Source: a virus
Direction: 5' to 3' (one strand)
Length of the DNA stretch: 64,000 bases
IMG/VR virus record: IMGVR_UViG_3300011398_000004
Location: 9,055-73,054 of that record
Numbering within the stretch: position 1 is the stretch's first letter; each line of letters opens with the position of its first letter. Shown here piece after piece: positions 11,117-60,692 of this stretch. The notes under the pieces are model-generated. The model saw only the letters and a program-made list of their open reading frames with translations. It searched no databases and had not been told where the DNA came from. The translations under genes were made by a program, and so were the position numbers.

Positions 11117-11145
11117 TTGCAATCTTTATTAAAATGTGGTATAAT
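11117..11145 (+). promoter_or_regulatory. consensus sigma-70/sigma-A promoter TTGCAA-N17-TATAAT
   Basis: TTGCAA at 11117-11122, exactly 17-nt spacer, TATAAT at 11140-11145. Confidence 0.45.
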
Positions 11146-11152
11146 GATAAAT

Positions 11153-11497
11153 ATGCGAGAGAATTTCCCAAATAATGAGAGAAATATCTATTTCTCAGAA
11201 TATGTCGCACGTCGAAATATGATCAACAGATGTATAAATCCTGATTGTAAAGAATGGAAATGGTATGGTGTTAGAGGAATAAAGGTCTGTGATCGTTGGA
11301 TAAATAGTTTCTTAGATTTTCTTAAAGATATTGGTCCGAAACCATCACCAGGATTAACATTAGGAAGAATAGACAACGATGGGGATTATGAACCTGGGAA
11401 TGTTAAATGGTCAACTAGAAAAGAACAAGCAAATAATCGACGTAGACGAGAATACGATCGTTCACCAGATACAAGATTAAGGCGTAGGCGCATATAG
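11153..11497 (+). CDS. HNH homing endonuclease (YGVRGIKVC...RIDNDGDYEPGNVKWSTRKEQANNRRRR)
   Basis: ORF track 11117..11497 begins with TTG, which is the -35 hexamer itself, so the first in-frame ATG after the -10 box (11153) is preferred. Start is uncertain. Confidence 0.55.
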   Translation: MRENFPNNERNIYFSEYVARRNMINRCINPDCKEWKWYGVRGIKVCDRWINSFLDFLKDIGPKPSPGLTLGRIDNDGDYEPGNVKWSTRKEQANNRRRREYDRSPDTRLRRRRI

Positions 11498-14102: not shown

Positions 14103-14149
14103 ATCAATGAAAAGATCCTTTACTTCTTATCATTGATCTTTTCATTGAT
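14103..14149. promoter_or_regulatory. operator-like inverted repeat ATCAATGAAAAGATC, 17-nt spacer, GATCTTTTCATTGAT
   Basis: Two perfect 15-bp arms; the same 15-mer recurs at 11090 and 14011. Confidence 0.45.
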
Positions 14150-14432: not shown

Positions 14433-14769
14433 CATACCACATACACGCATACCAATATGTGCATGTGGCATGGTATATGCCCTTTGTACACCTAAAACCC
14501 TGTAAGTGTAGGTGTCTCAATAATAGGTCAAAACCCGTCTAAGGGGCAAACGAGCACCCTAACGGGTGCTGGCATGGCATGGCGGGTGCTACTCACCACG
14601 GGGCTAGGAATGGCAAATAGGGCATATGTCACTTTGTGTCACAAAGTAGCACCCGACACTATGTATCTACAGATATTTTGCGGCACCCTTACGATTTATG
14701 TTGCATTGACCTATATATATGTGCCATACTACGGGTTACTGCAATACCGCAGTGTATGAGAGTAGGTCA

Positions 14770-15433
14770 TATGACAAGAGCAGAGAAAAGAGCAGCCGCT
14801 AAGGCTGCTACGCTGGACACCGTAGCCAACAGCATGTTGGCTGCCGAAGTGGCACCCGCCGAAGTGACACCCGCCGAAGTGGCACCCGCCGAAGTGGCAC
14901 CCGCCGAAGTGGCACCCGCTACCATCCTGCCATTGTGGCTCAGTGCCATACTGGCGTCATTCGCTGGCAGTATCGGCAGTGCATACGCCGTCATTTGCAC
15001 TGGCTATGCCACGTCACCCGCGCGGGTGAAATACAGCATCACGGGACGTGGTGACGCCATTGTGGCGGTACTCTCCCACTTCGTGACACTGCCCCTGCAA
15101 GGTTCGCTCTTGAACCTGTACCCGACGGACACGGAAGTACCGGGGCATACGCTGCACTACGCTGGCGCTAACAGTGTCGGCCACACGTACCGCCTTAGCG
15201 GACACAAGGGTACATGGGTGTTTCGTGGTACGGCCCTTGCGATGCTCGGCACCGTACCGCCTGCCATGCTGCTTTGTGACGTGCCATTGTTGGGCGATAT
15301 CCGTACCGCCAATCTCACCACACCCGAAGCACTCAAGACACCGCACGGACTCACGGTACACAGTGCCATACTTGAAGTAGTGGCACCCGTCGAAGTGGCA
15401 CCCGTCGCACCCGTGGTGCCCGATGCCACGTAG
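14770..15433 (+). CDS. hypothetical protein with (PAEVA)x5 tandem repeat and hydrophobic segments
   Basis: 15-bp DNA tandem repeat gccgaagtggcaccc x5 at ~14848-14922; partial repeats again at the C-terminus (VAPVEVAPVAPVVP); high GC. Start chosen at ATG 14770, since the upstream part of ORF 14636 lies in lower-GC sequence. Confidence 0.4.
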
Positions 15434-15642: not shown

Positions 15643-16140
15643 TCACAAAATTTGAGGTTTGATATTCATGGCGGAGTTAAAAACTTTAACACGTTCATGA
15701 GCTCTTTGTGCTAATATTTCTAATCTTTTAATTTCAATTTGGTTGATCATATTCAACATAGATATTCTATGTTCTTCAGCTAAAGCCAAATCCCGCTTAT
15801 ATATTCCTATTTCTCTCTTCTCTTCCATTCGCTTCTTTGTTCTTATACGGTGACAATTCGCGCAAACCAAGTCACATTTCTTAATTTCTTCTAATAGGAT
15901 ATTTAGACCAGTAGCATACAATAAATCTGATATATCTTTAAATTTGTCATCCGGGTCTCGATGATCGAAATCCATACATTCAGGTGGAAAACTATTATGA
16001 CAATCCATACAAGGATTGGTTCTTAAACTTTCGATCATTAGACGTCTTTGTTCTTTCCAACCTTCTCGACCATTTATCCATTTCATTTCACCCTCTCTAA
16101 TTCTTTCATTCCCCAATGGAACGCCCATCTTGCAACCCAT
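15643..16140 (-). CDS. HNH endonuclease
   Basis: CMDCHNSFPPECMDFDHRDP...CANCHRIR HNH/zinc motif; GAGGAG Shine-Dalgarno. Confidence 0.6.
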   Translation of the reverse strand: MGCKMGVPLGNERIREGEMKWINGREGWKEQRRLMIESLRTNPCMDCHNSFPPECMDFDHRDPDDKFKDISDLLYATGLNILLEEIKKCDLVCANCHRIRTKKRMEEKREIGIYKRDLALAEEHRISMLNMINQIEIKRLEILAQRAHERVKVFNSAMNIKPQIL

Positions 16141-19038: not shown

Positions 19039-19809
19039 CTACTGAGCATCGATGATCGAAGAAGCCGAAGAACTACCCTCCTCGATATAGTCGTCCGCCG
19101 TAGGCAGACGCCATGAGCCATCAGGCAAAATCACGACTTCGTGCTTAACACCGCGCATCACGACGATGTCCGTTTTCAGCCCAGGCTTCAGTTCTCGTTC
19201 GATTTCGAGAGGGACACCGACTCGTTCGGCAAATCCAGGGTTATCTGCTCTGTATTTCTTCAGATAATCCACGATTGCTCGACGAACCAGACGAGTTCGT
19301 GGTCGATCTGTATCTTCCTCAATCATCGTGAGCTCACGAACTTGGTCTGGAGTGAGTGCTACGTGAATCTTTGTCATGACTGCCATTTTGTTTTTCCTAT
19401 TCTGTTTACGACTTTCGTTAAGTAATTCTCTTGTCTGTTTATTTAAATATCTTATCTTTTCTCTTATTTTCTTGTTTACCTCCTCACGTGATAATCTTGC
19501 TATATGGTCAACACGTGGACGTTTATTTTTTACCTGTTCTTCCCATGTTGCCCAACGAACATTTCCTGGCTCATAATTTTTATTGTTGTCAATTCTTTCT
19601 AATGTTAAATTTATAGAAGTTTTTGGGCCAATATCCTTATAGAATGCTGAAAAAGAATGAGACCATTTTTCACAGACCTTAATTCCTCTTCCACCATACC
19701 ATTTGTAGCCTTGATATTCTTCATCTGTGCATCGGCGTATCATTTCTACCCATGCACGATATTCAGATGTACCACTCATTCCGTGGCGTTCATACTGTAA
19801 ATAGCGCAT
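19039..19809 (-). CDS. HNH homing endonuclease with C-terminal ribbon-helix-helix-like extension
   Basis: [34 protein letters not shown]...RIDNNKNYEPGNVRWATWEEQ, and C-terminal TRLVRRAIVDYLKKY. Confidence 0.6.
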   Translation of the reverse strand: MRYLQYERHGMSGTSEYRAWVEMIRRCTDEEYQGYKWYGGRGIKVCEKWSHSFSAFYKDIGPKTSINLTLERIDNNKNYEPGNVRWATWEEQVKNKRPRVDHIARLSREEVNKKIREKIRYLNKQTRELLNESRKQNRKNKMAVMTKIHVALTPDQVRELTMIEEDTDRPRTRLVRRAIVDYLKKYRADNPGFAERVGVPLEIERELKPGLKTDIVVMRGVKHEVVILPDGSWRLPTADDYIEEGSSSASSIIDAQ

Positions 19810-21126: not shown

Positions 21127-21438
21127 ATGGATAATCAGGCTTTTTCGATAGGACGAATTGTCCATTATAGGCTAAATGCCGATGATGCTGATCAGATCAA
21201 TCGTCGACGAATTGGGCGACGCCCAACTGCTAATGACGTAGCATGGCCTCAAGGAGCCGTAGCCCATGTAGGAAATATGGTTCACGAAAATGACGTATTT
21301 CCAATGATCATCACTCGCGTATGGGATACTGATCATATCAATGGGCAAGTTTTCCTCGATGGCAATGATCTCTATTGGGCTACATCGAGGAAATTTGGTG
21401 ACCAACCTGGGACATTCTGTTGGCCTACTCGAGTATGA
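21127..21438 (+). CDS. hypothetical protein
   Basis: ORF track. Confidence 0.4.
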   Translation: MDNQAFSIGRIVHYRLNADDADQINRRRIGRRPTANDVAWPQGAVAHVGNMVHENDVFPMIITRVWDTDHINGQVFLDGNDLYWATSRKFGDQPGTFCWPTRV

Positions 21439-22976
21439 TATCTTCTTCTCTTAAGGAAGAAGATATTGGTGATCCAATCGAAGCACTTGCAGCGATTGAA
21501 TTAGAATTACAGAAGAGGAATTGGCAAGATAATCCATCTTTATGGGTTAAAGAAAGACTGAATGAATATTTGTGGTCCTTACAGACTGTAGTATTACAAT
21601 CTGTAAGGGACCATCGTAGAACTCTTGTTCAGTCTTGTCATGCGATGGGTAAGTCGTGGCTCTCAGGAAGAGCCGCTGCATGGTGGATAGATGTATGGCC
21701 TGTAGGAACTGCTTTCGTCGTTACATCGGCTCCTAGCGGACCACAGGTAAAAGCGATTCTTTGGCGCGAAATTGGCCGCGCTTTCATGAAGGGTAAACTC
21801 GATGGAAGAGTTAACCAAACGGAATGGTATCGCTCAGTCGGAGGTAAAGAAGAAATCGTCGCCTTCGGTAGGAAGCCCGACGATCTCGATCCCGCTGCCT
21901 TCCAGGGTATTCACTCTCGTCGCGTCCTTGTTATTCTGGATGAAGCCAACGGTATCCGAGGTCCATTACACGAAGCCGCAGGATCCCTCATAGCTAATGA
22001 TGAATCTAAAATATTAATGATAGGAAATCCAGATGACCCTAATGGCGAATATTTTGAAGCGTCTAAACCGGGCTCTGGATGGAATGTGGTCAAGATCTCG
22101 GCGTTCGATACTCCAAACTTCACCGGAGAAGAACTTCCCCTCGACGTCCGTCAGCAGCTCATTGGAAAAACGTATGTTGAGGAGAAAAGAAGAAAGTGGG
22201 CACCTCTCTGGAGATGGAACGAAGAAGGAACAGCATGTATACCACCGGAAGGAGTAGATCCAGAGACTGACCCTAATTCGAATCCGATGTGGAAGTCGAA
22301 GATTTTGGGGGTTTTTCCTGAGAAGACTGAAGCAGGTGGGCTTATTCCTATTTCTTGGGTTAAAGCGGCACAATTACGAGATCTTTCCAAAACTACAATC
22401 GAGAAGAACGCTATTAACGAATTAGGTGCAGATATAGGTGGCGGCGGAGATGACTCAGCAACATGTCAGCGTAAAGGTGATGTTTATCGTATATTACGTT
22501 CTTATACAGAACCTGATACAATGATTCAATGTGGGATTATCATAGATGATTTGAATAACACAGGAGCATCGTGTGTTAAAGTTGATAAGATTGGTATTGG
22601 TTGGGGAGTTGTTAATCGTGGTCAGGAATTGAAGAGACCATTTATCGGTATTAATGTCGGTGAAGGGGCTACTGAAGACGATACTGCTTCGGATGAAAGA
22701 TTTGCGAATTTAAAAGCAGAATTATGGTGGAATGTTCGTAATATTTTCGAACGAGGACTTATCGACATTGATGCAGAGGATGAAGATCTCGCTGCTGAGT
22801 TATGTTCCATTCGTTATATAAGATTATCAAGTGGAAAGATTAAAATTGAGGATAAAAGACGAGATTCGAAAGGGAAGGTAATAGCATCACCTAATAGAGC
22901 GGAAGCATTGATGCTTGCGGCGACTCCTAAACGATTACACCGCGGTGTGATAGAATTAGAAGTATCATGGGGATGA
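21420..22976 (+). CDS. terminase large subunit
   Basis: 518 aa; Walker A-like SCHAMGKSWLSG and Walker B VLVILDEANGI, with a C-terminal nuclease-like region; immediately upstream of portal. Confidence 0.7.
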   Translation: MAYSSMISSSLKEEDIGDPIEALAAIELELQKRNWQDNPSLWVKERLNEYLWSLQTVVLQSVRDHRRTLVQSCHAMGKSWLSGRAAAWWIDVWPVGTAFVVTSAPSGPQVKAILWREIGRAFMKGKLDGRVNQTEWYRSVGGKEEIVAFGRKPDDLDPAAFQGIHSRRVLVILDEANGIRGPLHEAAGSLIANDESKILMIGNPDDPNGEYFEASKPGSGWNVVKISAFDTPNFTGEELPLDVRQQLIGKTYVEEKRRKWAPLWRWNEEGTACIPPEGVDPETDPNSNPMWKSKILGVFPEKTEAGGLIPISWVKAAQLRDLSKTTIEKNAINELGADIGGGGDDSATCQRKGDVYRILRSYTEPDTMIQCGIIIDDLNNTGASCVKVDKIGIGWGVVNRGQELKRPFIGINVGEGATEDDTASDERFANLKAELWWNVRNIFERGLIDIDAEDEDLAAELCSIRYIRLSSGKIKIEDKRRDSKGKVIASPNRAEALMLAATPKRLHRGVIELEVSWG

Positions 22977-23143: not shown

Positions 23144-24634
23144 ATGTCAGTCGATACTAAACACGTCTCTTACGAAGCATTAGAAGATCAATGGAGTCGT
23201 TGTAGAGACTGTGCGTCTGGAGAAGATGCTATTAAATCGAAGAAGACTAAATATTTACCTGCATTAGATAGCCATATTAAAGATAATATGCTAACGAATA
23301 AATATGGCGATTATCTAATGCGAGCGATGTTTTACAATGCCGTAGGAAGAACAATAACAGGATTATCAGGAGCTATATTCCAAAAAGCACCTTCCGTAGA
23401 CGTATCTGAAGGAATTATAAAAGAACAAATTAAAGATGTTACAATCACAGGACAGCCAATAGATTTATTCGCATTAAATGTTACGAGGGAATATCTTACT
23501 ACCGGGCGCGTAGGCATTTTAGTGGACATGTCGACTGAATTAGCGACTAGTCCACGTCCATATTGGGTCTTATACGAAGCAGAAAACATTATCAATTGGC
23601 GTTTCAAGAATCTTGGTGGTGATAAGGAATTGAATTTAGTAGTACTCAGAGAGACAGTCGATAAATTAGATCTAGATGATGAGTTTTGTATCGAGCCTGT
23701 TGTTCAATATCGTGTTTTACGTTTATCAGATCCTGGCATTTATACTCAGCAAGTCTTTGTAGAAGTTGAAAACAATTACGGAACTATTCCTGGAGTTAAA
23801 CCTGGAGAAAAAGTGTATGAAGGTGGTCCTATAATTATTCCTACAAGAAGAGGGCAACCTTTGAATTTTATACCGTTTTCACTTCCATGGGCTATAAATG
23901 CACCGCCTTTATTAGACCTCGTCTCAGTAAATTTAAGTCATTATCGTGGAACTGCTGATTTGAAACACGGACTTCATTTTACAGCACTTCCTACACCGTG
24001 GGTAGCAGGAGATGGGACTGATACTAATAAACCTCTTTCTATAGGTTCAGGAACAGCTTGGTCGTTGGGTAAAGACGGTAAAGCTGGGATGCTCGAATTT
24101 ACCGGTCGCGGATTAGGTGCTATAAAAACTGATCTATTAGATATGCAAAGACAGATGGCAACACTCGGCGCACGTCTATTAGAGGAAGCTCCTCGATATG
24201 CCGAGACTGCAATGGGCGTCTCGATGCGTCATGGTAGTGACTACGCTACTTTACGTATGGTAGCACAGATAGTCGAACAACAGATTTCATTTGCTCTAAA
24301 AATTCATTCATGGTGGCTTTCGACTGAGGAATTAGTCGAAAAGATGAAGGCAAATGTTGAATTAAATAAAGTCTTCTTCGATCAATCTGTTACAGCCGAT
24401 GAATTACGTGCGCTTCTTCTCGCATTACAGGCTTCGACTATCTCATTTAAAACATTTTATGAGAGACTATCCAATACAGGATGGACACGGGAAGGGATTG
24501 ATTCCGAGGAAGAGCTTGAGGAAATTAAGAAGGATGGGGATCAATTCAAGCCACCTGAGAAACCAGGATTGCAGCAACCTGATCCTAAATCGACAGCACC
24601 GGGGAGTAAACCTCCACCGAAACCAGTGAGCTAA
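23144..24634 (+). CDS. portal protein
   Basis: 496 aa, directly after TerL; acidic Pro-rich C-terminus; call is from position and size. Confidence 0.55.
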   Translation: MSVDTKHVSYEALEDQWSRCRDCASGEDAIKSKKTKYLPALDSHIKDNMLTNKYGDYLMRAMFYNAVGRTITGLSGAIFQKAPSVDVSEGIIKEQIKDVTITGQPIDLFALNVTREYLTTGRVGILVDMSTELATSPRPYWVLYEAENIINWRFKNLGGDKELNLVVLRETVDKLDLDDEFCIEPVVQYRVLRLSDPGIYTQQVFVEVENNYGTIPGVKPGEKVYEGGPIIIPTRRGQPLNFIPFSLPWAINAPPLLDLVSVNLSHYRGTADLKHGLHFTALPTPWVAGDGTDTNKPLSIGSGTAWSLGKDGKAGMLEFTGRGLGAIKTDLLDMQRQMATLGARLLEEAPRYAETAMGVSMRHGSDYATLRMVAQIVEQQISFALKIHSWWLSTEELVEKMKANVELNKVFFDQSVTADELRALLLALQASTISFKTFYERLSNTGWTREGIDSEEELEEIKKDGDQFKPPEKPGLQQPDPKSTAPGSKPPPKPVS

Positions 24635-24635
24635 T

Positions 24636-24869
24636 ATGGAAGACGATTTTAAAATTAGTATAGGAAGAATGGGAAGAGAATGCACTATTTCTTTGAATGA
24701 TAAAGATATATCTAAATATGTTCAGAGAATTATTGTAGATGCAAAACCTATGGAATTAACTAAAATTTGGATTCAAATATCCCCGATGGGGACTAAATTT
24801 GAAGTAACAGGAATAGAAAACCCTAATTTCTATATACCAGAGGATATTCCTAAGATTCCTGAGGATTAA
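24636..24869 (+). CDS. hypothetical protein
   Basis: ORF track. Confidence 0.4.
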   Translation: MEDDFKISIGRMGRECTISLNDKDISKYVQRIIVDAKPMELTKIWIQISPMGTKFEVTGIENPNFYIPEDIPKIPED

Positions 24870-25109
24870 ATGTTTAAGTCATTAAAATCGGAACCTAAAT
24901 CTTCATTGGAATTACAAGCGCAGGCGCTTAAAGTTCTTCAGGGATTGCCTGTAGAAGATGCTATAGGTGCAGCTTGCTCTTTTTTGCTCTATTCCTCTTA
25001 TAACCATAGAATCCAATTTAGACGTGTAATGAATGAAAAAGTAATTCGAGAAGGTTTTTCTGGTATTTCACTGTTAGAACAATTCAATCGTGTTAGTAAG
25101 GAGCTATAA
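24870..25109 (+). CDS. hypothetical protein
   Basis: ORF track. Confidence 0.4.
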   Translation: MFKSLKSEPKSSLELQAQALKVLQGLPVEDAIGAACSFLLYSSYNHRIQFRRVMNEKVIREGFSGISLLEQFNRVSKEL

Positions 25110-25537
25110 TGGCAAAAAGTGCATCGTTCGCGAATTCATTGCTTCTATTGATTTTTAATGCTACTCTTTTCGCTAACGTAGCAATCAATGCGACTTCGTC
25201 ACCGATTACGAATGTCCATGCAAGTCTACATACAGCAGATCCAGGAACTGCTGGTGATCAATCTACGAGTGAGATTACTTATACGAGCTATGCAAGAGTT
25301 GCAGTTCTTCGCACATCTGGTGGATGGACTGTAACTGCGAATTCTTGTAGCCCATTAGCTGCAATCACATTTCCTGCTGGAACTGGTGGTTCTGGTACGG
25401 CAACTCATTTCGGCTTAGGAACTCTTCTTTCTGGTGCAGGTGTTCGCATCTATTCCGGCACTGTAACTCCTAATATCGTCTGCGGAAATGGTGTTACTCC
25501 TTCCCTCTCGACAGCTTCAACTATTGTGGAGACCTAA
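25109..25537 (+). CDS. hypothetical structural protein
   Basis: ORF track. Confidence 0.45.
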   Translation: MAKSASFANSLLLLIFNATLFANVAINATSSPITNVHASLHTADPGTAGDQSTSEITYTSYARVAVLRTSGGWTVTANSCSPLAAITFPAGTGGSGTATHFGLGTLLSGAGVRIYSGTVTPNIVCGNGVTPSLSTASTIVET

Positions 25538-25538
25538 T

Positions 25539-25772
25539 ATGGAATCGAAGATCGTGACGGCAATAGGTGTTTCAGTAAACACCGTTCATGGTGCAGATGC
25601 AAATCGACGTATTGAAAAAGCTGTGAACGAGGAAATTTTAAAATGTAATGAAGAAGGAATAAGTACGGAAGAAAAGAATTCTTCTATTATTCGAGAACGG
25701 ATGGCTAAAGCACATCAACGTGTATTAGCAGAAATTGAAGAAGAATTACGAAAATCTAATGAGGAATCGTAA
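25539..25772 (+). CDS. hypothetical protein
   Basis: Internal Met of ORF 25488..25772. Confidence 0.4.
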   Translation: MESKIVTAIGVSVNTVHGADANRRIEKAVNEEILKCNEEGISTEEKNSSIIRERMAKAHQRVLAEIEEELRKSNEES

Positions 25773-26215
25773 TGGCAACTATTAAATGGACTACACTGAG
25801 TAGTGTAGTCGCAGCATTAGCGAATGCAGATATTGCTTCTATTGTGAATAACGCATACTCTGCACTTGGTACTGCGATTAATAATTCAAGTGCCCTTGAT
25901 AGATGGGGTTGGCTTGAATTGAACCTTGGTTCTATTGATCCAGTTGATGGCGCATGTATTTTCGTATATCTATTACCATCATTTGATGGTGGAACAGATT
26001 ATGATGATGGTCCTAGTGCGAATAATCCTTGTTCGCATAATATCGTTGCAGTAATGTCAGTTAATATCGCTAGTAGTGCAAAAAAGATCACATATGGTCC
26101 AATTCCATTACCAGCAGGACATTTTAAATTTGCACTTCGTAATTGTACTGGAGTCACGTTAGCTGCAACTGCTAACACTCTTGATTTATATACAAATAAT
26201 GAAGCAGTAGCATAA
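25772..26215 (+). CDS. hypothetical structural protein
   Basis: ORF track. Confidence 0.45.
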   Translation: MATIKWTTLSSVVAALANADIASIVNNAYSALGTAINNSSALDRWGWLELNLGSIDPVDGACIFVYLLPSFDGGTDYDDGPSANNPCSHNIVAVMSVNIASSAKKITYGPIPLPAGHFKFALRNCTGVTLAATANTLDLYTNNEAVA

Positions 26216-27103
26216 ATGGCTCTCTCACAACCAACAGCAAGAGGAGCGGCAGCAGACCCAGCTCCTAAATTAAAACTGGATCAATCAACTGGTTCAGTTC
26301 TTAATTCCGATTGCTATACAATGATGGTCTGGGCTTATAATTCCACAGCGGCTATTGGAGATGGAGCTTATTCGGATATTATGTGTGTACGTGATTCCAC
26401 TATAGGTGGTGATCCTAGTGATGATAAGGTAGTTGCTATCTACCATAAAGATGTCTCAACTAATTGGATTCTTTCCATGGGTGATGATATCGAGGATATT
26501 GATGCCGGCGTTCGTATTCCAGCACTCCAGTGGCGGCATTACACTCTAACTTCACAAGATATGCCTGGACAAGAGGTTAATATTACTTCTTATTTAGATG
26601 GAGCACAGCAGAAACGAGCATTGGATGGTACAACAGATGTAACACCTCCTATATTTCCAAATAATGACTGTTTCATTCAATTATTCAATAGTCGATCATC
26701 AGCTGCAGATTCATCTAGTATCTGGGTTGGTCATATGGCCGCATTTAAATGCTGGAATAATGTGGCATTGACACCTGAAGAAATTAAACGTGAAATGTGG
26801 ACTTATGTTCCAATTCGTAAAGCAGGTTTATATTCTGCTTTGCCAATGATTAATAAGGCACATTCTGTATTCGATTTAACTGGTAAAACATGGACGGTAA
26901 CAGGCGCAGATTTTGTAGATAGTAATATTAATCCACCAGGAGTTTCTTGGCAGAATCGATGGTTAAGTCGTAGTATCGTAAATTCTCCAGCTAGTGCTGC
27001 TCTTACAGGAACAGTCACAGCCGCTATTACAGAAGCTGATATCGTTACTGGTGGTAAGACTATTATCTTGACCGTAACCGGCGATACGTTCATTCCAAAT
27101 TGA
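26216..27103 (+). CDS. hypothetical structural protein
   Basis: ORF track. Confidence 0.45.
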   Translation: MALSQPTARGAAADPAPKLKLDQSTGSVLNSDCYTMMVWAYNSTAAIGDGAYSDIMCVRDSTIGGDPSDDKVVAIYHKDVSTNWILSMGDDIEDIDAGVRIPALQWRHYTLTSQDMPGQEVNITSYLDGAQQKRALDGTTDVTPPIFPNNDCFIQLFNSRSSAADSSSIWVGHMAAFKCWNNVALTPEEIKREMWTYVPIRKAGLYSALPMINKAHSVFDLTGKTWTVTGADFVDSNINPPGVSWQNRWLSRSIVNSPASAALTGTVTAAITEADIVTGGKTIILTVTGDTFIPN

Positions 27104-27110
27104 GAATTTA

Positions 27111-27887
27111 ATGGCTGACACAAAAATATCCGCTTTAACGGGAGCATCTGCTGTTGTTGCGGCAAATGAGTTTGCTATCAACGAAGCAGGTACGTCTAAA
27201 AAGGTTACAGGTACACAGATCAAAGACTTCGTGAATGACGCACCTGTATTCGCCGCAGGAAGTGACTCAGCAAACACGAAGCCGAAACTCACTGTTGGCA
27301 CATTGTTGACAACACCAGAAGCAGGCGCATTAGAATTAGATGCTAATTGCTTATATGGAACAACAGATGCTGGTAATCGTGGGGTTATACCAATTCGTCA
27401 TTTCATTAGATGTAATGCGACGAGAACACTACCTAATGACACCGCAGAGAATGCTATATTCGCTTCACCCGCAAATGGACGATTAACCCTAGAGATTGGC
27501 ACTTATCTATTCGATATGGTCATCGGCATTACGGCTATGAGTGCTACATCAGGTAATGCACTGTTAGATATTCTTGGTGCAGGAACTGCGACATGTAACG
27601 ATTGGCTATATGCCGTTCTCGGTAAGGATGCAACACTTATCAGTGTCGCTGCCGTTCTTGGTGTCATGCCAGTTATCCAGAGCACTCCGGCATCTATGTT
27701 CACAGCAGGCACAGGAGCCGAGATGTGGTGGATCGCGAAGGGATCGTTTACAGTCACTGTAGCAGGAACGTTGATTCCCTCGATTGACCAAGTCACTGCC
27801 GCTGCCGCCGTCGTAGCCATTGGTTCATATTTTTCATGCGAACGAATTGGTGATGCGGCTGTCGTCAGTGTTGGTCAGTGGGATTAA
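27111..27887 (+). CDS. fibre-like protein with conserved tail-fibre N-terminal motif
   Basis: MADTKISALTGASAVVAANEFAINEAGTSKKVTGTQI matches the widespread tail-fibre/tailspike N-terminal anchor motif (KISxLxxA...TKKvT..Ql). Confidence 0.5.
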   Translation: MADTKISALTGASAVVAANEFAINEAGTSKKVTGTQIKDFVNDAPVFAAGSDSANTKPKLTVGTLLTTPEAGALELDANCLYGTTDAGNRGVIPIRHFIRCNATRTLPNDTAENAIFASPANGRLTLEIGTYLFDMVIGITAMSATSGNALLDILGAGTATCNDWLYAVLGKDATLISVAAVLGVMPVIQSTPASMFTAGTGAEMWWIAKGSFTVTVAGTLIPSIDQVTAAAAVVAIGSYFSCERIGDAAVVSVGQWD

Positions 27888-27892
27888 TTTAA

Positions 27893-29794
27893 ATGGCTGC
27901 CCGCATTCTGCTGGAAACTGGTGATGCACTCTTAGCAGAGAATGCGGATACTCTACGTCGAGAAGAAGTATTTTTCGATGATACACGTCAAGATATTATT
28001 AATGGTTTAGATTCTGATCAAGCTGAAGCTGGCGGTTGGGATGCGAAAGTTAAACCGAATATTCCAATTGCTAATGTTATACGAACATCTGATAATGTAG
28101 CTACAATCACTTTACAAGCACAAAGTGATCATGATATAACAGTTCAAGAAATAATTACAGATATAATTCCTGGGTCTGCTCTTGTAGGTGGTAGTTCTAT
28201 TGTAGTGATACCATCATTTACAATTGATCCAGTAATTGTGAATAATATAGGAGCTTCAACTGGTTTAGCAACTGCGTTAGGTATAGGTCTTGCATTAGCT
28301 CTTAGTACAGCATCTGCAATAGGAGCATCTTCAGTCACCGCTGTTGGATCGAGTATTGTCTCCGCCGTAGGTTCTATATCAGGTTCTTCTTCCGTAGCAG
28401 GAACTGGTAAATCAGATTTTATAGCAGTTGCGTCAGCGACAGGCTCCAGTAGTGTAGCTGCAACTGGATCAAGTATTGCTTCAAGTTCTGGTGCTTCAAC
28501 AGGATCTTCTAATATAACTGTTGTAGGTTCATCATTAGCAGTTTCAGTAGGTTCTGCTTTCGGCGTAGCATCCGTATTAGGAACAGGGGCTTCTCGATTT
28601 GATGCTATAGGTTCGTCCGTTGGTGCCGCTACTGTACTAAGTACGGGTGCAGGCTTAGCCAGTTCTCTAGGTGCTTCAACAGGCGCGGCAACAGTAGAAG
28701 GGATAACTTCTTCAGCAGACCCTATCGGTTCGATAGTAGGATCTTCATCCGTAACAGCAATAGGTTCTTCATTAGCTACTTCAATTGGACTTGTTTCAGG
28801 TTCTTCATCTGTTATAGCGATAGGGACATCGGATGTTTCTGCTGTTGGTGCAGCTATTGGATCATGTTCAGTAGCGGCAACTGGGAATTCGTTAATTACA
28901 TCCATCGGTTCTGCAGTAGGAGCTTCATCTGTTGTAGCTACTGGTCAATCTTTATTTACCGCAGTAGCTTCCTCGATTGGATCATGCACAGTAGTCTCTA
29001 CTGGTAGTTCATTATTTACAGCAATAGCTTCTTCAATAGGATCTTCATCTGTTTCAGCTACGGGTCAATCTACTTCTACATCTATAGCCTCCTCGATTGG
29101 ATCATCTGTTGTAATATCAACTGGTGCTTCACTATTTACAGGAATAGGATCTGTAACTGGTTCTGCATCTATTACAGGAATAAATGGCGAACAGATTATT
29201 GGAGTTATTTCTGGTTCTAGTTCTGTTCTTGGTATAGGATCTTCTCTTGCAACATCTATTGGTAGTGTCACTGGATCTAGTTCTATTTTAGGTATAGGTC
29301 AAAGCCAAGTAAGTAGTATTGGATCATCTATAGGTTCATGTTCAGTTTCATCTGTAGGAGCGAGTAATTTCCGAGGAATAGCGGTTTCATCTGGCAGTTC
29401 AATCGTTACATCTACTGGAACTGGAATAAAGATAGCAGTTGGGTCTTCTATTGGTTCTTGTTCAGTCAGTTCAACTGGTTTATCTTTATTCACAGGAATT
29501 GGTGTATCTTCTGGTAATGCGAATATTTTAGGAACTGGTAATAGTCAATCTATAAGTATAGCATCTTCGATAGGATCTTCCTCGATTATAGCTGTTGGCG
29601 TTGGTGGGTCAATTAGTATCGGGACAGTAATAGGATCATCTGATGTTTTATCTATAGGATCTGCTTTAGGTGTTTTCCCATATATTAATATCACTTCACA
29701 AACAGTTTTTGATCCAGGATTACCTGTAGTAATACATGAAATACGGACTATTTCTGTAACTGAGAGAACTCTTAGGGTGACTTTAGATGTCTAA
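27893..29794 (+). CDS. Ser/Gly/Ala-rich repetitive fibre-like protein, about 35 imperfect 12-aa repeats (xIGSSSVxAxGxS)
   Basis: 633 aa, e.g. SAVGSSIVSAVGSISGSSSVAGTG...; 36-bp DNA periodicity. The antisense ORFs 28144..28905, 29065..29271 and 29299..29493 are repeat artefacts. Confidence 0.55.
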   Translation: MAARILLETGDALLAENADTLRREEVFFDDTRQDIINGLDSDQAEAGGWDAKVKPNIPIANVIRTSDNVATITLQAQSDHDITVQEIITDIIPGSALVGGSSIVVIPSFTIDPVIVNNIGASTGLATALGIGLALALSTASAIGASSVTAVGSSIVSAVGSISGSSSVAGTGKSDFIAVASATGSSSVAATGSSIASSSGASTGSSNITVVGSSLAVSVGSAFGVASVLGTGASRFDAIGSSVGAATVLSTGAGLASSLGASTGAATVEGITSSADPIGSIVGSSSVTAIGSSLATSIGLVSGSSSVIAIGTSDVSAVGAAIGSCSVAATGNSLITSIGSAVGASSVVATGQSLFTAVASSIGSCTVVSTGSSLFTAIASSIGSSSVSATGQSTSTSIASSIGSSVVISTGASLFTGIGSVTGSASITGINGEQIIGVISGSSSVLGIGSSLATSIGSVTGSSSILGIGQSQVSSIGSSIGSCSVSSVGASNFRGIAVSSGSSIVTSTGTGIKIAVGSSIGSCSVSSTGLSLFTGIGVSSGNANILGTGNSQSISIASSIGSSSIIAVGVGGSISIGTVIGSSDVLSIGSALGVFPYINITSQTVFDPGLPVVIHEIRTISVTERTLRVTLDV

Positions 29795-30134
29795 CATATT
29801 ATCAGTCGTAGCTGGATGGACTGCATTATTAGGCCCATTTACACTCCGTGCAGATGGTGTTCCTTTAGATCTATCAGGATTTATTGTAGAATTAGTTCTA
29901 AAGGATTCTTTTGGAAATCTCGTAGTTCATGGTGGGACAGTTACAGTATTAAATCAAATTACAAATCCTGGTCAAGTTACTTATGAACCTGTATCTGCAG
30001 ATTTCGTATTTTCTCCTTATGGTAATACTGGACGACAACCGTATACAATTCGTTGGAAGGTAACTGATGGTGCTGGGGATATAATCTATTTCCCTAATAC
30101 TGTCGCAGATGAAATTGGTGTGTATCGACTTTAG
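29787..30134 (+). CDS. hypothetical protein
   Basis: ORF track. Confidence 0.4.
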   Translation: MSNILSVVAGWTALLGPFTLRADGVPLDLSGFIVELVLKDSFGNLVVHGGTVTVLNQITNPGQVTYEPVSADFVFSPYGNTGRQPYTIRWKVTDGAGDIIYFPNTVADEIGVYRL

Positions 30135-30142
30135 GAGGAATT

Positions 30143-30334
30143 ATGGTAGAACTTAAAATAATGATGGATGACCATGGAAATTGCAGAGTAGAAGGACCCA
30201 TTGATAATAAAATGGTCTGTTATGGAATGTTAGAACTCGCAAAGGAAGCAATACATATTCATCATCTTAAGCAAGCTGAACGACTTATACAGCCAGCTTC
30301 AACTATACCGTTTACGCCGAAAGGTGTAAATTAG
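30143..30334 (+). CDS. small hypothetical protein
   Basis: ORF track; AGGAGG Shine-Dalgarno. Confidence 0.35.
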   Translation: MVELKIMMDDHGNCRVEGPIDNKMVCYGMLELAKEAIHIHHLKQAERLIQPASTIPFTPKGVN

Positions 30335-30369: not shown

Positions 30370-30398
30370 TTGCTTTTGGCTTTTAGCTATGGTATCAT
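30370..30398 (+). promoter_or_regulatory. promoter TTGCTT-N17-TATCAT, with TGG extended -10, driving the GIY-YIG gene
   Basis: Read directly; the track start 30389 lies inside the -10 box, so the real start is probably ATG 30416. Confidence 0.4.
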
Positions 30399-30415
30399 AC
30401 AACTGTAGATTGTTT

Positions 30416-30916
30416 ATGAGCTTTAAGCCTTGTATCTATGCTTTAATTGACCCTCTATACCCTAATCAAATTAGGTATATTGGAAAGACGATTAAAAAAG
30501 GAAGATTGAGGGCTCATGAAAAAGAAGCAAAACTTTGCATAGAAAGACATAGTCATAAACTTAATTGGATTCGTAGTTTATTAAGACAAAATAGAACTTA
30601 TATAATTCAGATTTTACAGGAATTTCCGTTAGATATCTCTAAGGAAGATTTATTTAATGCAGAAATTTATCATATAGCTAAAGTAAAATTAGAAGGCCAT
30701 AATTTAACTAATTCAACTTCTGGTGGAGAAGGTGGATTTGTTGGACCTTTTTCTGAAATTATATTGAATAAAATACGAGAAAAAGCAAAAGAATCTTGGA
30801 AAAATCCAAAGAGACTAGAAATAAAAAGACAAATAGAGAATAAACATCGTTCTTGTAGAGCTGCGATAACAAGAAGAAATTCATTATCTACAGAATCATT
30901 AGGTTCATTTTTATGA
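30416..30916 (+). CDS. GIY-YIG homing endonuclease
   Basis: CIYALIDPLYPNQIRYIGKT is the GIY...YIG motif; sits with its own promoter between fibre and scaffold genes. Confidence 0.65.
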   Translation: MSFKPCIYALIDPLYPNQIRYIGKTIKKGRLRAHEKEAKLCIERHSHKLNWIRSLLRQNRTYIIQILQEFPLDISKEDLFNAEIYHIAKVKLEGHNLTNSTSGGEGGFVGPFSEIILNKIREKAKESWKNPKRLEIKRQIENKHRSCRAAITRRNSLSTESLGSFL

Positions 30917-31722
30917 AAGCAGTCATTAACGCTTTAACAGAAGTTGAAGAGCCTCTTCGTAATGAATACGAAGAGCGCGAAGGAAAATTCTATTTAAAAT
31001 TAGATGGGCAACTCCCAGGATTTGTTGACGCTAAAGAACTCTTAGCGGCAAATGTAAAGGTTGTTGAATTTCGAGATCGTAATATAGCTTTATTAAAAGA
31101 GAATGACGAACTCCGTCCCTTAAAACTCAAATATGAGGGGATTGACCCTGTCGAAGCCAAAGATGCTATCGAGAAAGTTAAAGCTCTTGGCAAGAAGGGG
31201 ATTAAGGACGTCGAGGATTTTAATAGTCAAGTAAAGATGGTTGCAGAGGATTTAATTAAGCCTCTTCGTGAGCAACTTGCTACGTCAGCAGCAGAAACAG
31301 CAGCTGAACGTAAACGTGCAGATGAATCTCTTCTCCATTCCAAAATCACAGACCATTTCGTTAAAATGGGTGGACGTTCTACTGCAACTGACTTTGTAGT
31401 GAATCTTGCCAAAGAAACATTTGAAGTAAAGGAACGTAACGTCACTGCAAAACCTGGAAAATTCAGCGTGAAGAAGCCGGGTGATCCTATTACTCCAGAG
31501 GAATGGTTAGCTGAAGTTGTTCAGAAAGATCATGACTATGTCTTCACTCCTTCGAATGGTGGAGGGGCTCCACCTGTAAAAGGAACGAATACACCAGTTC
31601 CATCGAAGACAAAACCGGGGCAGACAATTCTCAAGAATCCAACTCCGCAGGAATTGGGGCAATTCTCTACGGATATCGCAGCGGGTAAAATAAAAGTAGA
31701 ATTTGATACGACAACCGCGTAG
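30913..31722 (+). CDS. head scaffolding protein (candidate)
   Basis: 269 aa, Glu/Lys-rich helical, immediately upstream of the major capsid gene. Confidence 0.5.
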   Translation: MKAVINALTEVEEPLRNEYEEREGKFYLKLDGQLPGFVDAKELLAANVKVVEFRDRNIALLKENDELRPLKLKYEGIDPVEAKDAIEKVKALGKKGIKDVEDFNSQVKMVAEDLIKPLREQLATSAAETAAERKRADESLLHSKITDHFVKMGGRSTATDFVVNLAKETFEVKERNVTAKPGKFSVKKPGDPITPEEWLAEVVQKDHDYVFTPSNGGGAPPVKGTNTPVPSKTKPGQTILKNPTPQELGQFSTDIAAGKIKVEFDTTTA

Positions 31723-31814: not shown

Positions 31815-32963
31815 ATGGCCGGAGCACTTGTTACAACTAATATTCTTTCAACCCTCGTTGCGATGGGTCTTGCTACCCTTCGTGAACGTCTTGCCCTTGT
31901 TTTCATTGCAAATCGTGAATATGAGAGATTGATCTCTGGTGCGACTAAATTCGCAACAGTCAATGTAGCTGTTCCTGCGACTGTGGCAGTTCGCACAGTT
32001 GCACCGAATGTCGTTCCTCCTGCCGTAACTGCCGTTACCCCGACTTCCATCCCCATTACTCTCGATCAGTGGCAAGAAGCTCCTTTTGCAATGGATGATA
32101 AAGGACTTGTCCAGGTTGATAATGGGATTATCCCCATGCAGGCTAAGGAAGCTGTTAAGTCTTTAGCTAATGGTATTGAAGACTATCTCTGGTCTCTTCT
32201 TGCTGCAAAAGTCGCGAATTATGCTGGAACCGCAGGATCAACTCCTTTCGGTACTGGTCTTGATGATTTCTTGGCAGCGGATAAAATCCTCAATGATAAT
32301 TTAGCTGATCCTGAAGATCGCTTCATGGTCATCAATACTGCTGCGAAGGCGAGCGCAATGGGTCTTCGTGCAATTCAGGACGCTTCCTTCCGTGGCGGAG
32401 CTGGACCGAATTCATTAATCAGTGGTGAGATCGGTAATATCCTCGGCGCTCGTTGGGTTATGTCCCAGCGAGTTCCTAATCACGTTTCCGGAACTCTTTC
32501 GGGAGTAGGAACGACCGTTACTGGCGTGAATGCAATCGGCGCTACTGTTCTTGCATTATCAGGCGGCGCTTCAGGAACCATCCTTGCTGGCGACATCCTC
32601 ACTATTGCAGGACGTCAGTATAACGTAGTGAGTTCAGTTGGTGGTTCTACTCCTTCGTCAGTCACCATTGCAGCTCCTGGTCTTACTCTCGCAACTGCCG
32701 GTGGCGAAGTTCTTTCTATCGCTGCTTCGTTTGCTGCAAACATTCTCATTCAGAAGCATTGTCTCGCGTTTGCAATGGCTCCTCTGATTGATACTGTTGA
32801 AGTTCCTGGTGCAACTCTTCAGTCGGTAGCTATCGACGAAGGTTCTGGTCTTTCACTTCGCTTAGAAGTATCACGGCAGCATCGTCAGGTTCAGTGGTCA
32901 TTTGATGCTCTATATGGTGGAACTGTTGTTCGTCCTCAGCTCGCATCGTGGCTTGCTGGTTAA
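31815..32963 (+). CDS. major capsid protein
   Basis: 382 aa, after scaffold and followed by a strong terminator; AGGGAGG Shine-Dalgarno. Call is from position, size and composition. Confidence 0.55.
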   Translation: MAGALVTTNILSTLVAMGLATLRERLALVFIANREYERLISGATKFATVNVAVPATVAVRTVAPNVVPPAVTAVTPTSIPITLDQWQEAPFAMDDKGLVQVDNGIIPMQAKEAVKSLANGIEDYLWSLLAAKVANYAGTAGSTPFGTGLDDFLAADKILNDNLADPEDRFMVINTAAKASAMGLRAIQDASFRGGAGPNSLISGEIGNILGARWVMSQRVPNHVSGTLSGVGTTVTGVNAIGATVLALSGGASGTILAGDILTIAGRQYNVVSSVGGSTPSSVTIAAPGLTLATAGGEVLSIAASFAANILIQKHCLAFAMAPLIDTVEVPGATLQSVAIDEGSGLSLRLEVSRQHRQVQWSFDALYGGTVVRPQLASWLAG

Positions 32964-32977
32964 TAATCTGTAACACC

Positions 32978-33014
32978 GTGGGAGTTGGCTCAGACTGACT
33001 CCCACGTTTTCGTT
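32978..33014 (+). terminator. rho-independent terminator after the capsid gene
   Basis: GTGGGAGT/ACTCCCAC 8-bp perfect stem, 12-nt loop, then GTTTTCGTT. Confidence 0.55.
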
Positions 33015-54612: not shown

Positions 54613-54879
54613 TCATCTTCGATCTATGACAATACCTAGACCTAAGATTCTAGCTTCGAGGATGGAACGGTCTAACTTAGCCTGTAGTAAGCGAGCACTA
54701 CATTCTGTAGCTAATTCTTCCACAGATTTCAATTGACACGATAGAATGTCTCGATATCGAGTGATGTCCTTTGTACTCTGATTACTATAATCTTGAATCG
54801 ATTGTTGAGTAATCATCTCGAATTTTGTCATTCGACGTTCTTTAACCTTCGGTTTACGTGACGCAGTTTTCTTTTTCAT
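54613..54879 (-). CDS. hypothetical protein
   Basis: ORF track. Confidence 0.35.
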   Translation of the reverse strand: MKKKTASRKPKVKERRMTKFEMITQQSIQDYSNQSTKDITRYRDILSCQLKSVEELATECSARLLQAKLDRSILEARILGLGIVIDRR

Positions 54880-55376
54880 TTATCTTCCTCATTAAATTTT
54901 CCGTCTTTTCCTCTTGGTTGTAATATGTGACTATCTTTATAAGCACCTCTTTCTATTCTTTTATGATGATGTTCTTTTACGTGTTCAGTTTCATCTTTAG
55001 GCTCAAGATTATCTGGATGATCATTTAATCTATTTTCATCTATATGATGAGCGATTTCATTTGGTAAAAGTAATCTTCCAAGTTTTTCTTCTAAATTAAT
55101 ATCAGCACGTTTAGCGTATGGAAACCATGACTTACGATGATAATCAGGCTTATAGATTAAGAAATATCCATTTCTAATTATTTCTCCTCCTTTCCAATTA
55201 GGATTATCAATTCCAAATTTATCTTTTCTTGTTAGTTTTTCTCTTTGAAGAATTAGACCAATAATTCCTTTTCCTACATGAAGTTGTTTGGCAATGTCAG
55301 AAATCTTTTGACCAGATGTATATAGACTTATTACCTCCTTCTTTAAAATATCGTAATCTTGGCGACTTCTAGTCAT
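54876..55376 (-). CDS. HNH endonuclease
   Basis: EIAHHIDENRLNDHPDNLEPKDETEHVKEHHH. Confidence 0.6.
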   Translation of the reverse strand: MTRSRQDYDILKKEVISLYTSGQKISDIAKQLHVGKGIIGLILQREKLTRKDKFGIDNPNWKGGEIIRNGYFLIYKPDYHRKSWFPYAKRADINLEEKLGRLLLPNEIAHHIDENRLNDHPDNLEPKDETEHVKEHHHKRIERGAYKDSHILQPRGKDGKFNEEDK

Positions 55377-60078: not shown

Positions 60079-60106
60079 TTTATCCTTTCCGTCATTAACG
60101 AAGAAG

Positions 60107-60190
60107 TGCGAAGGGAGGGACTCGAACCCTCATGATCTTACGATCGGGAGATTTTAAGTCTCCTGTGAATGCCAATTCCACCACCTTCGC
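60107..60190 (-). tRNA. tRNA-Leu (anticodon UAA), type II with long variable arm
   Basis: Reverse complement GCGAAGGTGGTGGAATTGGCATTCACAGGAGACTTAAAATCTCCCGATCGTAAGATCATGAGGGTTCGAGTCCCTCCCTTCGCA. 7-bp acceptor stem, 3-bp D-stem, anticodon stem GGAGA/TCTCC with loop CTTAAAA, T-arm GAGGG-TTCGAGT-CCCTC. Confidence 0.8.
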
Positions 60191-60607
60191 TCAATGATTG
60201 ACTTTACCATTACAGCTACGAGAACAAAATATTCCTATCCAAGGTTTACATTTCTTATTTCTAACTTGATGAATAGTTGGATTAAATTCTTTTCTACAAA
60301 ACTCACAAATCCAAATTATCTTAGAAATATCTTCTGTATGATGTTTTCTATGTTCAGGCCTTTTTAAAACTTCAAAATTATTATCTTCATTATTAGCATG
60401 GTTTAAATCTTTATGATGAACTTGTTCATCTATTTCTAAATATCTATTTAATATACATTCCATTCTATATTTAGGATAAGAAACAGTCATCCTTTCAATT
60501 ATCGTACTGTTAATATCTCGCTTAACTAAACAGACATGGAGTCTTCCATCAGGTCTTGAATATGGTCCGTAAACCTCATATTCTTCATACACGATGTTTG
60601 ACTCCAT
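60191..60607 (-). CDS. HNH endonuclease inserted between two tRNA genes
   Basis: HHKDLNHANNEDNNFEVLKRPEHRKHH, plus C-terminal CEFC...CSRSC zinc knuckles. Confidence 0.6.
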   Translation of the reverse strand: MESNIVYEEYEVYGPYSRPDGRLHVCLVKRDINSTIIERMTVSYPKYRMECILNRYLEIDEQVHHKDLNHANNEDNNFEVLKRPEHRKHHTEDISKIIWICEFCRKEFNPTIHQVRNKKCKPWIGIFCSRSCNGKVNH

Positions 60608-60619
60608 GTCTATTCAAAG

Positions 60620-60692
60620 TGGGCCATCTTGGACTTGAACCAAGAACCACTCGATTATGAGCCGAGTGCTCTGACCATTGAGCTAACGGCCC
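60620..60692 (-). tRNA. tRNA-Met/Ile2 (anticodon CAU), elongator type
   Basis: Reverse complement GGGCCGTTAGCTCAATGGTCAGAGCACTCGGCTCATAATCGAGTGGTTCTTGGTTCAAGTCCAAGATGGCCCA; anticodon loop CTCATAA; the anticodon stem lacks the three G-C pairs typical of initiator tRNA. Confidence 0.8.

Follow-up and report, generated by a model that had tools for sequence, protein, structure and literature searches.

The stretch of DNA analyzed here, referred to throughout as the window, comprises the 64,000 nucleotides between positions 9,055 and 73,054 of the IMG/VR virus record IMGVR_UViG_3300011398_000004, and its map of open reading frames (ORFs) has the layout of a tailed-phage genome. At the head of the scaffold and capsid genes, directly behind a promoter-like motif, lies a free-standing gene for a small GIY-YIG endonuclease, which is the main subject of this work. 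The genes and features of the locus are the following:

30149..30334, + strand: small conserved ORF located 5' of the insertion site, with homologs in the closest relative (L029, see below) and in ~10 more distant relatives
30370..30398, + strand: promoter-like motif TTGCTT-N17-(TGG)TATCAT, initially recorded as TTGCTT-N17-TGGTATCAT
30416..30916, + strand: free-standing GIY-YIG endonuclease gene, 166 aa, catalytic domain at ~residues 1-105, GC content 0.29
30913..31722, + strand: head scaffolding protein gene (PHROG 206, E=2.5e-18), whose ATG overlaps the GIY-YIG stop codon (ATGA)
31815..32963, + strand: major capsid protein gene, with a strong intrinsic terminator-like hairpin 3' of the gene (32977-33006, 12-bp stem)

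Identity and predicted structure of the GIY-YIG protein

The GIY-YIG protein begins with MSFKPCIYALIDPLYPNQIRYIGKT and carries in its N-terminal region the motifs IYALIDP...IRYIGKT, in which the GIY and YIG elements are ~10-11 residues apart. It matches PHROG 314 'homing endonuclease' (E=7.5e-9), and in an alignment of ten sequences, consisting of the focal protein and nine outside homologs with 30-46% identity, the residues Y8, Y21-I22-G23, R30, H34, E83 and N99 are invariant. A profile generated from these ten sequences retrieves the catalytic domain of I-TevI (1mk0/1ln0, E=3e-4), with which R30, H34, E83 and N99 align, while the match of the same profile to T4 endonuclease II (EndoII) is weaker (E=0.12). 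In the AlphaFold model, residues 1-100 are predicted with a pLDDT of ~85-95 and contain strands at 6-11, 19-25 and 63-69 together with helices at 29-40, 47-57 and 76-92, corresponding to the three-stranded sheet with flanking helices that defines the GIY-YIG fold. The best matches of this model in a Foldseek search of the PDB are all GIY-YIG proteins (PD-T4-3, the UvrC N-terminal domain and T4 EndoII), with E values of only 1e-3 to 0.5. The nine outside homologs carry PF01541, NUMOD3, NUMOD1 or an I-TevI-type DNA-binding domain, and one of them is named 'group I intron endonuclease' in its source annotation. In addition, a protein with 100% identity to the focal one is encoded on a 73-kb JGI/ENA metagenome contig, presumably the source of the window; exact-sequence look-ups of proteins from the window, this copy included, found no record. 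Motifs, PHROG 314, the I-TevI profile match and the predicted fold therefore agree with the GIY-YIG assignment made in the initial annotation, and the ORF at 30416-30916 is, as judged from its sequence and structural model, a GIY-YIG nuclease with an intact set of catalytic residues. An upstream ATG at 30389 was considered as the start codon and rejected, as it lies inside the -10 element and the homologs begin at the Met encoded at 30416.

The small size of the protein and its lack of a specificity domain are shared with T4 EndoII, and the top Foldseek matches are to the defense nuclease PD-T4-3. Both features would suit an accessory nuclease that benefits the phage, either by degrading host DNA in the manner of T4 EndoII or by attacking competing phages or satellites, in which case the patchy distribution described below would reflect ordinary gene turnover. 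T4 EndoII itself is a weaker match, being found at Foldseek rank 11 and at the profile E value given above. The best sequence affinity of the protein is instead to I-TevI, to NUMOD-bearing homing-type proteins and to PHROG 314, and the gene of a host-DNA-degrading enzyme should lie among the early genes, not at the head of a scaffold/capsid operon; we consider an accessory function of this kind improbable.

An endonuclease-free allele of the scaffold junction

The capsid protein was used as the query to collect relatives of the locus from metagenome and IMG/VR contigs. This yielded 62 loci, the closest of which is L029 (metagenomic contig Ga0137459_1022297, 1776 bp). The lineage is otherwise sparsely represented: a megablast of the 28-34 kb region against 50,697 phage records gave no match, the closest capsid proteins in GenBank (from Vibrio siphophages) have only 35% identity, and scans of IMG/VR with the scaffold protein, an 826-aa protein, the primase and the ligase as queries returned no relatives. 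A scan of a genome collection with the capsid protein likewise gave no match that would point to a host.

L029 contains counterparts of g29787 (85% protein identity to the window), the small ORF 30149-30334 (62%), the scaffold protein (87%) and the first 46 capsid residues (96%), in the same order as in the window and without the GIY-YIG gene. The DNA flanking the insertion is 76% identical between the two on the left side and 79% on the right. In L029 the region 3' of the small ORF leads directly into the scaffold ATG, whereas the window contains 497 bp between ...GATTGTTT and ATGAAAGCA that have no counterpart in L029. This insert is the endonuclease ORF alone, extending from its ATG to the base before the scaffold ATG; both junctions read TTTATGA, with the boundary between TTT and ATGA, and the TGA of the ORF overlaps the scaffold ATG. 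The GIY-YIG gene is thus patchily distributed, with an empty site in an otherwise collinear relative. A target-site duplication was also considered, as the 17 nt before both junction ATGs resemble the L029 leader, and was rejected as too short and AT-rich to support a conclusion, TTTATGA alone being shared. The initial annotation had placed the gene between fiber and scaffold genes; the scaffold assignment on the 3' side stands (PHROG 206), while the presumed fiber gene (27893-29794) has no PHROG match.

The other related loci retrieved through the capsid gene contain no GIY-YIG homolog. Among the ORFs of at least 60 aa in the 1.5 kb 5' of the scaffold gene, read by eye in 17 distinct relatives, none encodes an endonuclease; those ORFs include MuF-like head-morphogenesis genes, small genes resembling ribbon-helix-helix (RHH) proteins and a methyltransferase. 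The GIY-YIG ORF is also distinct in composition, with a GC content of 0.29 against 0.37-0.49 in the neighboring genes. Because of the empty site in L029, the absence of a copy in the other relatives and this atypical base composition, insertion into the present lineage is far more economical than repeated precise loss. Ancestral presence at this position, with vertical inheritance and precise deletion in the lineage of L029 and in the other relatives, could draw on the fact that there is one close comparator only and that precise loss between the TTTATGA repeats at the junctions is possible. Against it stand the atypical GC content, the absence of the GIY-YIG gene or any other endonuclease from the junction in relatives at any distance, and the promoter-to-ATG arrangement of L029, which matches that of distant relatives; together these leave vertical inheritance very unlikely.

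The empty allele also bears on the promoter-like motif, which the initial annotation had described as a near-consensus promoter belonging to the GIY-YIG gene itself. TTGCTT-N17-TATCAT agrees with the consensus at 8/12 positions (3/6 in the -35 element) and falls below the scan threshold, so that 'near-consensus' is too generous, and promoter-like sites in the 24-34 kb region are no more frequent than in shuffled sequences (26 against 23+/-4.9). L029, which is free of the endonuclease, has a counterpart, TTGTAA-N17-TATACT, at the same distance from the ATG, which in that contig is the ATG of the scaffold gene. Distant relatives have sigma-70-like motifs directly 5' of the scaffold ATG as well (TTGACT-N17-GATACT in L004, TTGACA-N17-TATCCT in L021/22 and TTGACA-N17-TATAAT in L054), and these are clearer than the motif in the window. 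Because its counterpart precedes the scaffold ATG in the endonuclease-free L029, the motif is best read as the ancestral putative promoter region of the scaffold/capsid operon and not as an endonuclease-specific promoter. The GIY-YIG gene would therefore be a promoterless cassette and the first cistron of the scaffold/capsid operon.

We consider it probable that this uncultured tailed phage has collected free-standing genes of the homing-endonuclease type and that the GIY-YIG gene is a 497-bp promoterless cassette at the head-operon junction. In the proposed sequence of events, an I-TevI/Seg-like GIY-YIG gene would have entered the lineage as this cassette and been placed exactly between the promoter and leader of the head operon and the scaffold start codon, becoming the first cistron of the operon and using the existing promoter. 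As its stop codon overlaps the scaffold ATG, translation of the scaffold protein is probably coupled to it. Spread would then proceed by intron-less homing, as inferred by analogy with the T4 seg/mob paradigm: in a co-infecting relative, the enzyme would cut the allele that lacks the gene, at some point close to the insertion site, and repair of the double-strand break would copy the gene and flanking markers across. Close relatives do not carry all the endonuclease genes at identical positions, as strictly vertical inheritance of the whole set would have it, for L029 is empty at the scaffold junction and a second relative, L066, lacks the tRNA-flanked HNH gene treated below; mobility is therefore supported.

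Several observations weigh against this interpretation of the GIY-YIG gene. The Pfam model PF01541 scores 14.5 bits on the protein against a gathering cut-off of 22.6, a threshold that the homologs with 30-46% identity do pass, and no NUMOD, helix-turn-helix (HTH) or zinc-finger Pfam match is found in it even at E<=10. With 166 aa it is the shortest sequence in the alignment and ends where the NUMOD3/HTH regions of the homologs start, and its last 60 residues are modeled as two low-confidence helices (pLDDT 44-69). Site-specific homing enzymes normally need a separate DNA-binding module. Furthermore, no closely related copy of the gene was found elsewhere, the best outside match having 36% identity (this nearest homolog is located among the structural genes of an unrelated phage contig), and the cleavage site of the enzyme is not identifiable from sequence. 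The promoter is a predicted one, and L029, as the sole close comparator, is only ~77% identical in DNA. As the sole relative with an empty site stands at this distance, the insertion need not be recent; the homing described as 'ongoing' in the initial annotation is accordingly not borne out, since the protein also has no recognizable DNA-binding domain.

Because the C-terminal DNA-binding modules of the homologs are missing, continued activity of the enzyme is uncertain, and the gene may instead be an inactive remnant, which arrived by homing, lost its C-terminal DNA-binding domain and was retained since precise removal would disturb translation of the scaffold protein. The absence of the NUMOD/HTH modules present in the homologs of 193-272 aa and the low confidence of the C-terminal tail would be expected of such a remnant, as would the visible decay of a second endonuclease gene in this genome; in T4, moreover, the embedding of host regulatory signals is regarded as favoring the retention of such genes (PMC2988022). 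The six catalytic-motif residues are nevertheless intact, the ORF is uninterrupted, and the tail is basic and helical and could still bind DNA. Loss of function is thus an unlikely outcome, yet one to be taken seriously beside the preferred reading of a cassette capable of homing.

This locus presents a clear intron-less endonuclease insertion, at the sequence level, in an uncultured phage lineage of soil or sediment type: sequences exist for the alleles with and without the gene, and they define the point of insertion to the base. It would represent a selfish gene that took over the promoter and leader of an operon that ranks among the most strongly expressed in phages, without damage to the start codon of the scaffold gene. 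For annotation, its value is that the promoter belongs to the head operon, and the 166-aa protein and the L029 allele constitute a candidate enzyme/target pair for small GIY-YIG nucleases.

The HNH-type genes, the tRNA site and the GC-rich island

Outside the head operon, the ORF map of the window comprises the following blocks:

1-20 kb, leftward and rightward: early/replication genes
21420-22976: terminase
23144-24634: portal
after the capsid gene, up to ~54 kb: tail genes
54-64 kb, leftward block: ligase, two tRNAs and a UvrD-type helicase

In several relatives (L004, L014, L017 and others), the homolog of the small ORF 30149-30334 lies almost directly 3' of the portal gene, and the scaffold gene is preceded by a head-morphogenesis gene of the MuF-like type. 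In the window, the portal gene and the small ORF are separated by 5.5 kb (24636-30134) of Ser/Gly/Ala-rich genes without a family match, and a MuF-like gene was not found anywhere in the window by tblastn.

Including the GIY-YIG gene, there are eight endonuclease-type genes in the 64 kb (~6.5% of the sequence, one per 8 kb). Eight HNH-type genes and one GIY-YIG gene had initially been counted; the single GIY-YIG gene is correct, and the HNH-type genes number seven, as do the coordinates originally listed for them, with three canonical members and four of the YGGRGI family. The density initially called unusual is high, although it remains below that of T4, where 15 endonuclease genes account for 11% of the coding potential (PMC2988022). 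The endonuclease assignments rest on PHROGs, motifs and structure; none passes a Pfam gathering threshold, and NCBIfam gives no match for any of the endonuclease-type genes of the window. Direct searches of PDB sequences with single proteins as queries yielded no informative match either. The endonuclease ORFs are AT-rich, with GC contents of 0.29-0.35 against 0.41 for the window, the exception being Y19039 (0.42). No homologs of these endonucleases occur at corresponding places in the more distant relatives, and no relatives covering 1-20 kb, with its HNH-type genes and GC-rich island, were obtained. Rfam at gathering thresholds identifies two tRNAs only in the window and no intron; the possibility that the endonuclease genes are intron-encoded was therefore rejected, and they are free-standing. 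The seven genes other than the GIY-YIG gene, which fit the same mobile picture to differing degrees, are:

2068..2579, - strand: frameshifted YGGRGI-family gene with a degenerate HNH_3-like N-terminus
6183..6776, - strand: YGGRGI-family gene with N-terminal zinc ribbons and a C-terminal CCHC knuckle (PHROG 3377, E=6.7e-39)
11117..11497, + strand: Y11117, YGGRGI-family gene with the core domain only, at the left edge of the GC-rich island and flanked by inverted copies of the 15-bp motif ATCAATGAAAAGATC
15643..16140, - strand: H15643, zinc-type HNH gene (CxxC...DFDH...CANCH; PHROG 3106, E=2.7e-24), at the right edge of the GC-rich island
19039..19809, - strand: Y19039, YGGRGI domain with an RHH domain (PF12651, E=6e-6), GC 0.42
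54876..55376, - strand: H54876, HTH and HNH_3-type gene directly 3' of the DNA ligase gene, with ATGA overlaps at both ends
60106..60692, - strand: unit of tRNA-Met (60619-60692), the HNH gene H60191 (60191-60607) and tRNA-Leu (60106-60190)

The three canonical HNH genes possess the residues that define the motif, namely a His general base, an Asn and a His/Asn metal ligand. The motif of H54876 (HHIDENRLNDHPDN...H) is C-terminal and follows an N-terminal HTH, and that of H60191 is HHKDLNHANNEDNN...H. PHROGs assign all three to 'HNH endonuclease' with E values from 5.8e-12 to 2.7e-24, and Pfam thresholds are missed (H54876 scores 18.1 against 24.8 for HNH_3, H15643 scores 9.2 against 21.4 for PF01844, and H60191 has no match). 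H54876 overlaps both the upstream ligase gene and the next gene downstream through ATGA; its position beside the ligase gene agrees with the initial annotation. No homolog of H54876 follows the ligase gene in L073, L078, L079 or L080. A gap of 11 nt lies between tRNA-Met and the start of H60191, whose stop codon directly adjoins tRNA-Leu at its first base, so that the gene fills the spacer and lies, as first reported, exactly between the two tRNAs. H60191 and H54876 look like typical cassettes.

The relative available for the tRNA region, L066 (Logan SRR13614409), encodes a Pam3_Gp34-like protein that is 86% identical to the product of 60779-61525, and its collinearity with the window extends from 64000 to 60616 and includes tRNA-Met. 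Beyond this point it contains three unrelated small ORFs up to the contig end 750 bp further on, and neither an HNH gene nor tRNA-Leu. The breakpoint of homology (window 60616-60619, L066 10905-10908) falls within a few bases of the tRNA-Met 3' end, a location consistent with the use of a tRNA gene as a boundary for recombination or cleavage. The HNH gene is thus missing at the tRNA-Met position in L066, at a mosaic breakpoint; a clean tRNA-to-tRNA empty site was not seen. Among 18 more distant relatives (L068-L082 and L083-L085), which are too diverged to define empty sites, neither tRNA-Met nor a homolog of H60191 is present, and the only tRNA is a tRNA-His in L085. L066 has HNH_3+AP2 genes of its own (229-651 and 2559-2969) on either side of a thymidylate synthase gene (648-1670), and these are ~36% identical to the degenerate N-terminus of the frameshifted gene 2068-2579. 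As L066 carries other endonuclease genes elsewhere, the endonuclease load appears to be a trait of the lineage, with the genes and their places differing.

The remaining four HNH-type genes belong to a family defined by a YGGRGIKVC motif, and a six-frame HMM scan of the window finds exactly four such loci besides the one GIY-YIG gene. PHROGs label the family 'HNH endonuclease' (E down to 7e-39), and no Pfam or NCBIfam model matches it; of 147 homologs found, the 120 listed contain no precomputed Pfam domain, AP2 included. In an alignment of 32 sequences, R26, C27, R41, G42, I43, V45, W49, F56, R72, Y79, P81, N83 and N95 are invariant and no His is; Arg72 takes the place of the catalytic His that serves HNH enzymes as general base and is located where the first beta strand ends. 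The best structural match of the family is PacI, an HNH enzyme that starts cleavage with Tyr rather than His. The HNH fold assignment is plausible. With no invariant His and no Pfam AP2 match in the cores present in the window, both 'HNH' and the 'AP2-like' label given initially are loose; AP2-like segments are extra C-terminal domains of some outside homologs and occur in none of the copies in the window. The four cores are 57-61% identical to one another and no closer mutually than to outside homologs, and would therefore be old duplicates or separate arrivals. The frameshift initially placed in a gene at 2065-2579 is present in 2068-2579, which is probably a decaying endonuclease gene. Y19039 is the first gene of a leftward operon and faces the rightward late genes across a divergent intergenic region; it may be a transcription regulator that derives from an endonuclease and is itself no longer mobile.

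These properties raise the question of how many of the HNH-type genes are mobile endonucleases at all. Several may not be, the YGGRGI domain being a nuclease-dead DNA-binding module, Y19039 a regulator and the others DNA-binding accessory proteins, a possibility that is real though somewhat unlikely. The invariant Arg in place of a His general base and the lack of precomputed Pfam domains among the listed homologs would be consistent with a non-nuclease, and the RHH domain, genome-like GC content and divergent intergenic location of Y19039 with a regulator. On the other side, PHROGs call the family HNH endonuclease at very low E values, the family has an invariant Tyr (Y79) and two Asn besides its structural match to PacI, and the presence of four diverged copies in 20 kb, one of them frameshifted, is typical of homing endonuclease genes. 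A more specific proposal is that the YGGRGI domain (YGGRGIKVC...EQ..N) is a widespread phage family and a distinct offshoot of the HNH fold, with an invariant Arg in place of the catalytic His, and this we advance tentatively, as a doubtful case. The domain could be either a non-His nuclease or a nuclease-dead DNA-binding module reused as a regulator, the latter suggested by the RHH fusion at 19039-19809. If the Arg-for-His offshoot is true, many phage 'HNH endonuclease' annotations are wrong about mechanism; in the window, half of the genes called HNH are without the HNH histidine.

The GC-rich island (11.6-15.5 kb, ~4 kb) has a GC content of 0.54 against 0.41 for the window and is bounded by Y11117 and H15643, consistent with the earlier remark that two HNH-type genes bracket it. 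Its ORFs have no convincing family match, blastn of the island against the 50,697 phage records gave no match, and no relative of the island-adjacent primase gene was found in IMG/VR. That the flanking genes mobilize the island, as proposed in the initial annotation, is a hypothesis of a kind already published for 'HEG islands' (PMC10448857). Five copies of the motif ATCAATGAAAAGATC, each with no more than one mismatch, are clustered within 11-14.2 kb (11090-11104, 11525-11539, 14010-14024, 14103-14117 and 14135-14149), against 0.61 occurrences expected by chance; one inverted pair brackets Y11117 and another forms a palindrome with 17-nt spacing, and the motif may be an operator or other regulatory site. 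The non-coding segment 14225-14500 consists of an exact tandem 17-mer, TGTACGAAACCGTACAT, present twice, followed by three to four 49-bp units, each palindromic (ATGGCAcGG..TATGCTATAGCATA..CCATGCCAT). These repeats look like iterons or a replication origin, and a terminator-like hairpin lies just 5' of them at ~13966-13990. Within the GC-rich ORF 14636-15433, which has no family match, five to six tandem 15-bp repeats (14843-14934) encode (P)AEVA.

Comparison with known systems

The closest parallel to the GIY-YIG gene is found in the seg genes of T4 (SegA-G, including the promoterless segC/F/G and segD), which share with it a GIY-YIG catalytic domain and a position between conserved genes, not in an intron (PMC2988022). 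They are likewise absent from related phage, expressed from an upstream host promoter on a polycistronic message, marked by start/stop overlaps and found next to essential head genes. The gene described here differs in having no detectable sequence relationship to seg beyond the catalytic core and in being the first cistron of a scaffold/capsid operon, its homing being proposed by analogy. Seg proteins are ~200-220 aa long and have a DNA-binding domain, whereas the present protein has 166 aa and none that is recognizable. With I-TevI (1mk0/1ln0), its best profile match among solved structures, it shares the Tyr, Tyr, Arg, His, Glu and Asn positions; unlike I-TevI, it is not intron-encoded, lacks the linker, zinc finger and HTH of the DNA-binding region, and remains below the Pfam threshold.

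The arrangement of these genes also follows T4, in which 7/12 free-standing endonuclease genes are promoterless and use upstream promoters, with start/stop overlaps (PMC2988022), and in which segB lies between tRNA genes, segD between the capsid genes 23 and 24, and mobE overlaps the nrdA stop codon (PMC2988022, PMC2330249). H60191 resembles SegB in filling the spacer between two phage tRNA genes (PMC2330249), and a relative, L066, shares the upstream tRNA and breaks in homology at its 3' end; H60191 is an HNH and not a GIY-YIG gene, however, and L066 provides no simple tRNA-Met/tRNA-Leu empty site. H54876 resembles MobE and the other mob genes, which are free-standing, promoterless HNH genes that overlap the upstream stop codon (PMC2988022, PMC2790892), in its HNH_3-type motif with a separate HTH DNA-binding domain and in being embedded through an AUGA overlap in an operon beside a DNA-metabolism gene. 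It differs from MobE in having the HTH N-terminal and the HNH C-terminal, and is a prediction from sequence.

Phage lineages rich in endonuclease genes have been described, as has the tendency of these genes to cluster close to those for capsid, terminase and replication proteins (PMC10448857). The genomes of ICP1-like and other phages with HEG islands and IPA-HNH genes resemble the window in their many endonuclease genes, variable between relatives and including frameshifted copies, near capsid and other essential genes (Barth, Dunham and Seed 2023, PMC10448857). Shared as well are HNH-like domains too divergent for Pfam HNH_3, with AP2 fusions in some family members, which in the YGGRGI family are those outside homologs that carry the extra C-terminal segments. 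'HEG islands' are regions of >10 kb with high nucleotide identity between otherwise dissimilar phages, and flanking endonuclease genes are hypothesized to mobilize the DNA between them (PMC10448857). The island in the window does not meet this definition, as it is ~4 kb long and GC-rich, no second copy was found, and only the flanking positions of the endonuclease genes fit. All the behaviors seen here have precedents in T4 or ICP1, and the current view of free-standing phage endonuclease genes is unchanged by them.

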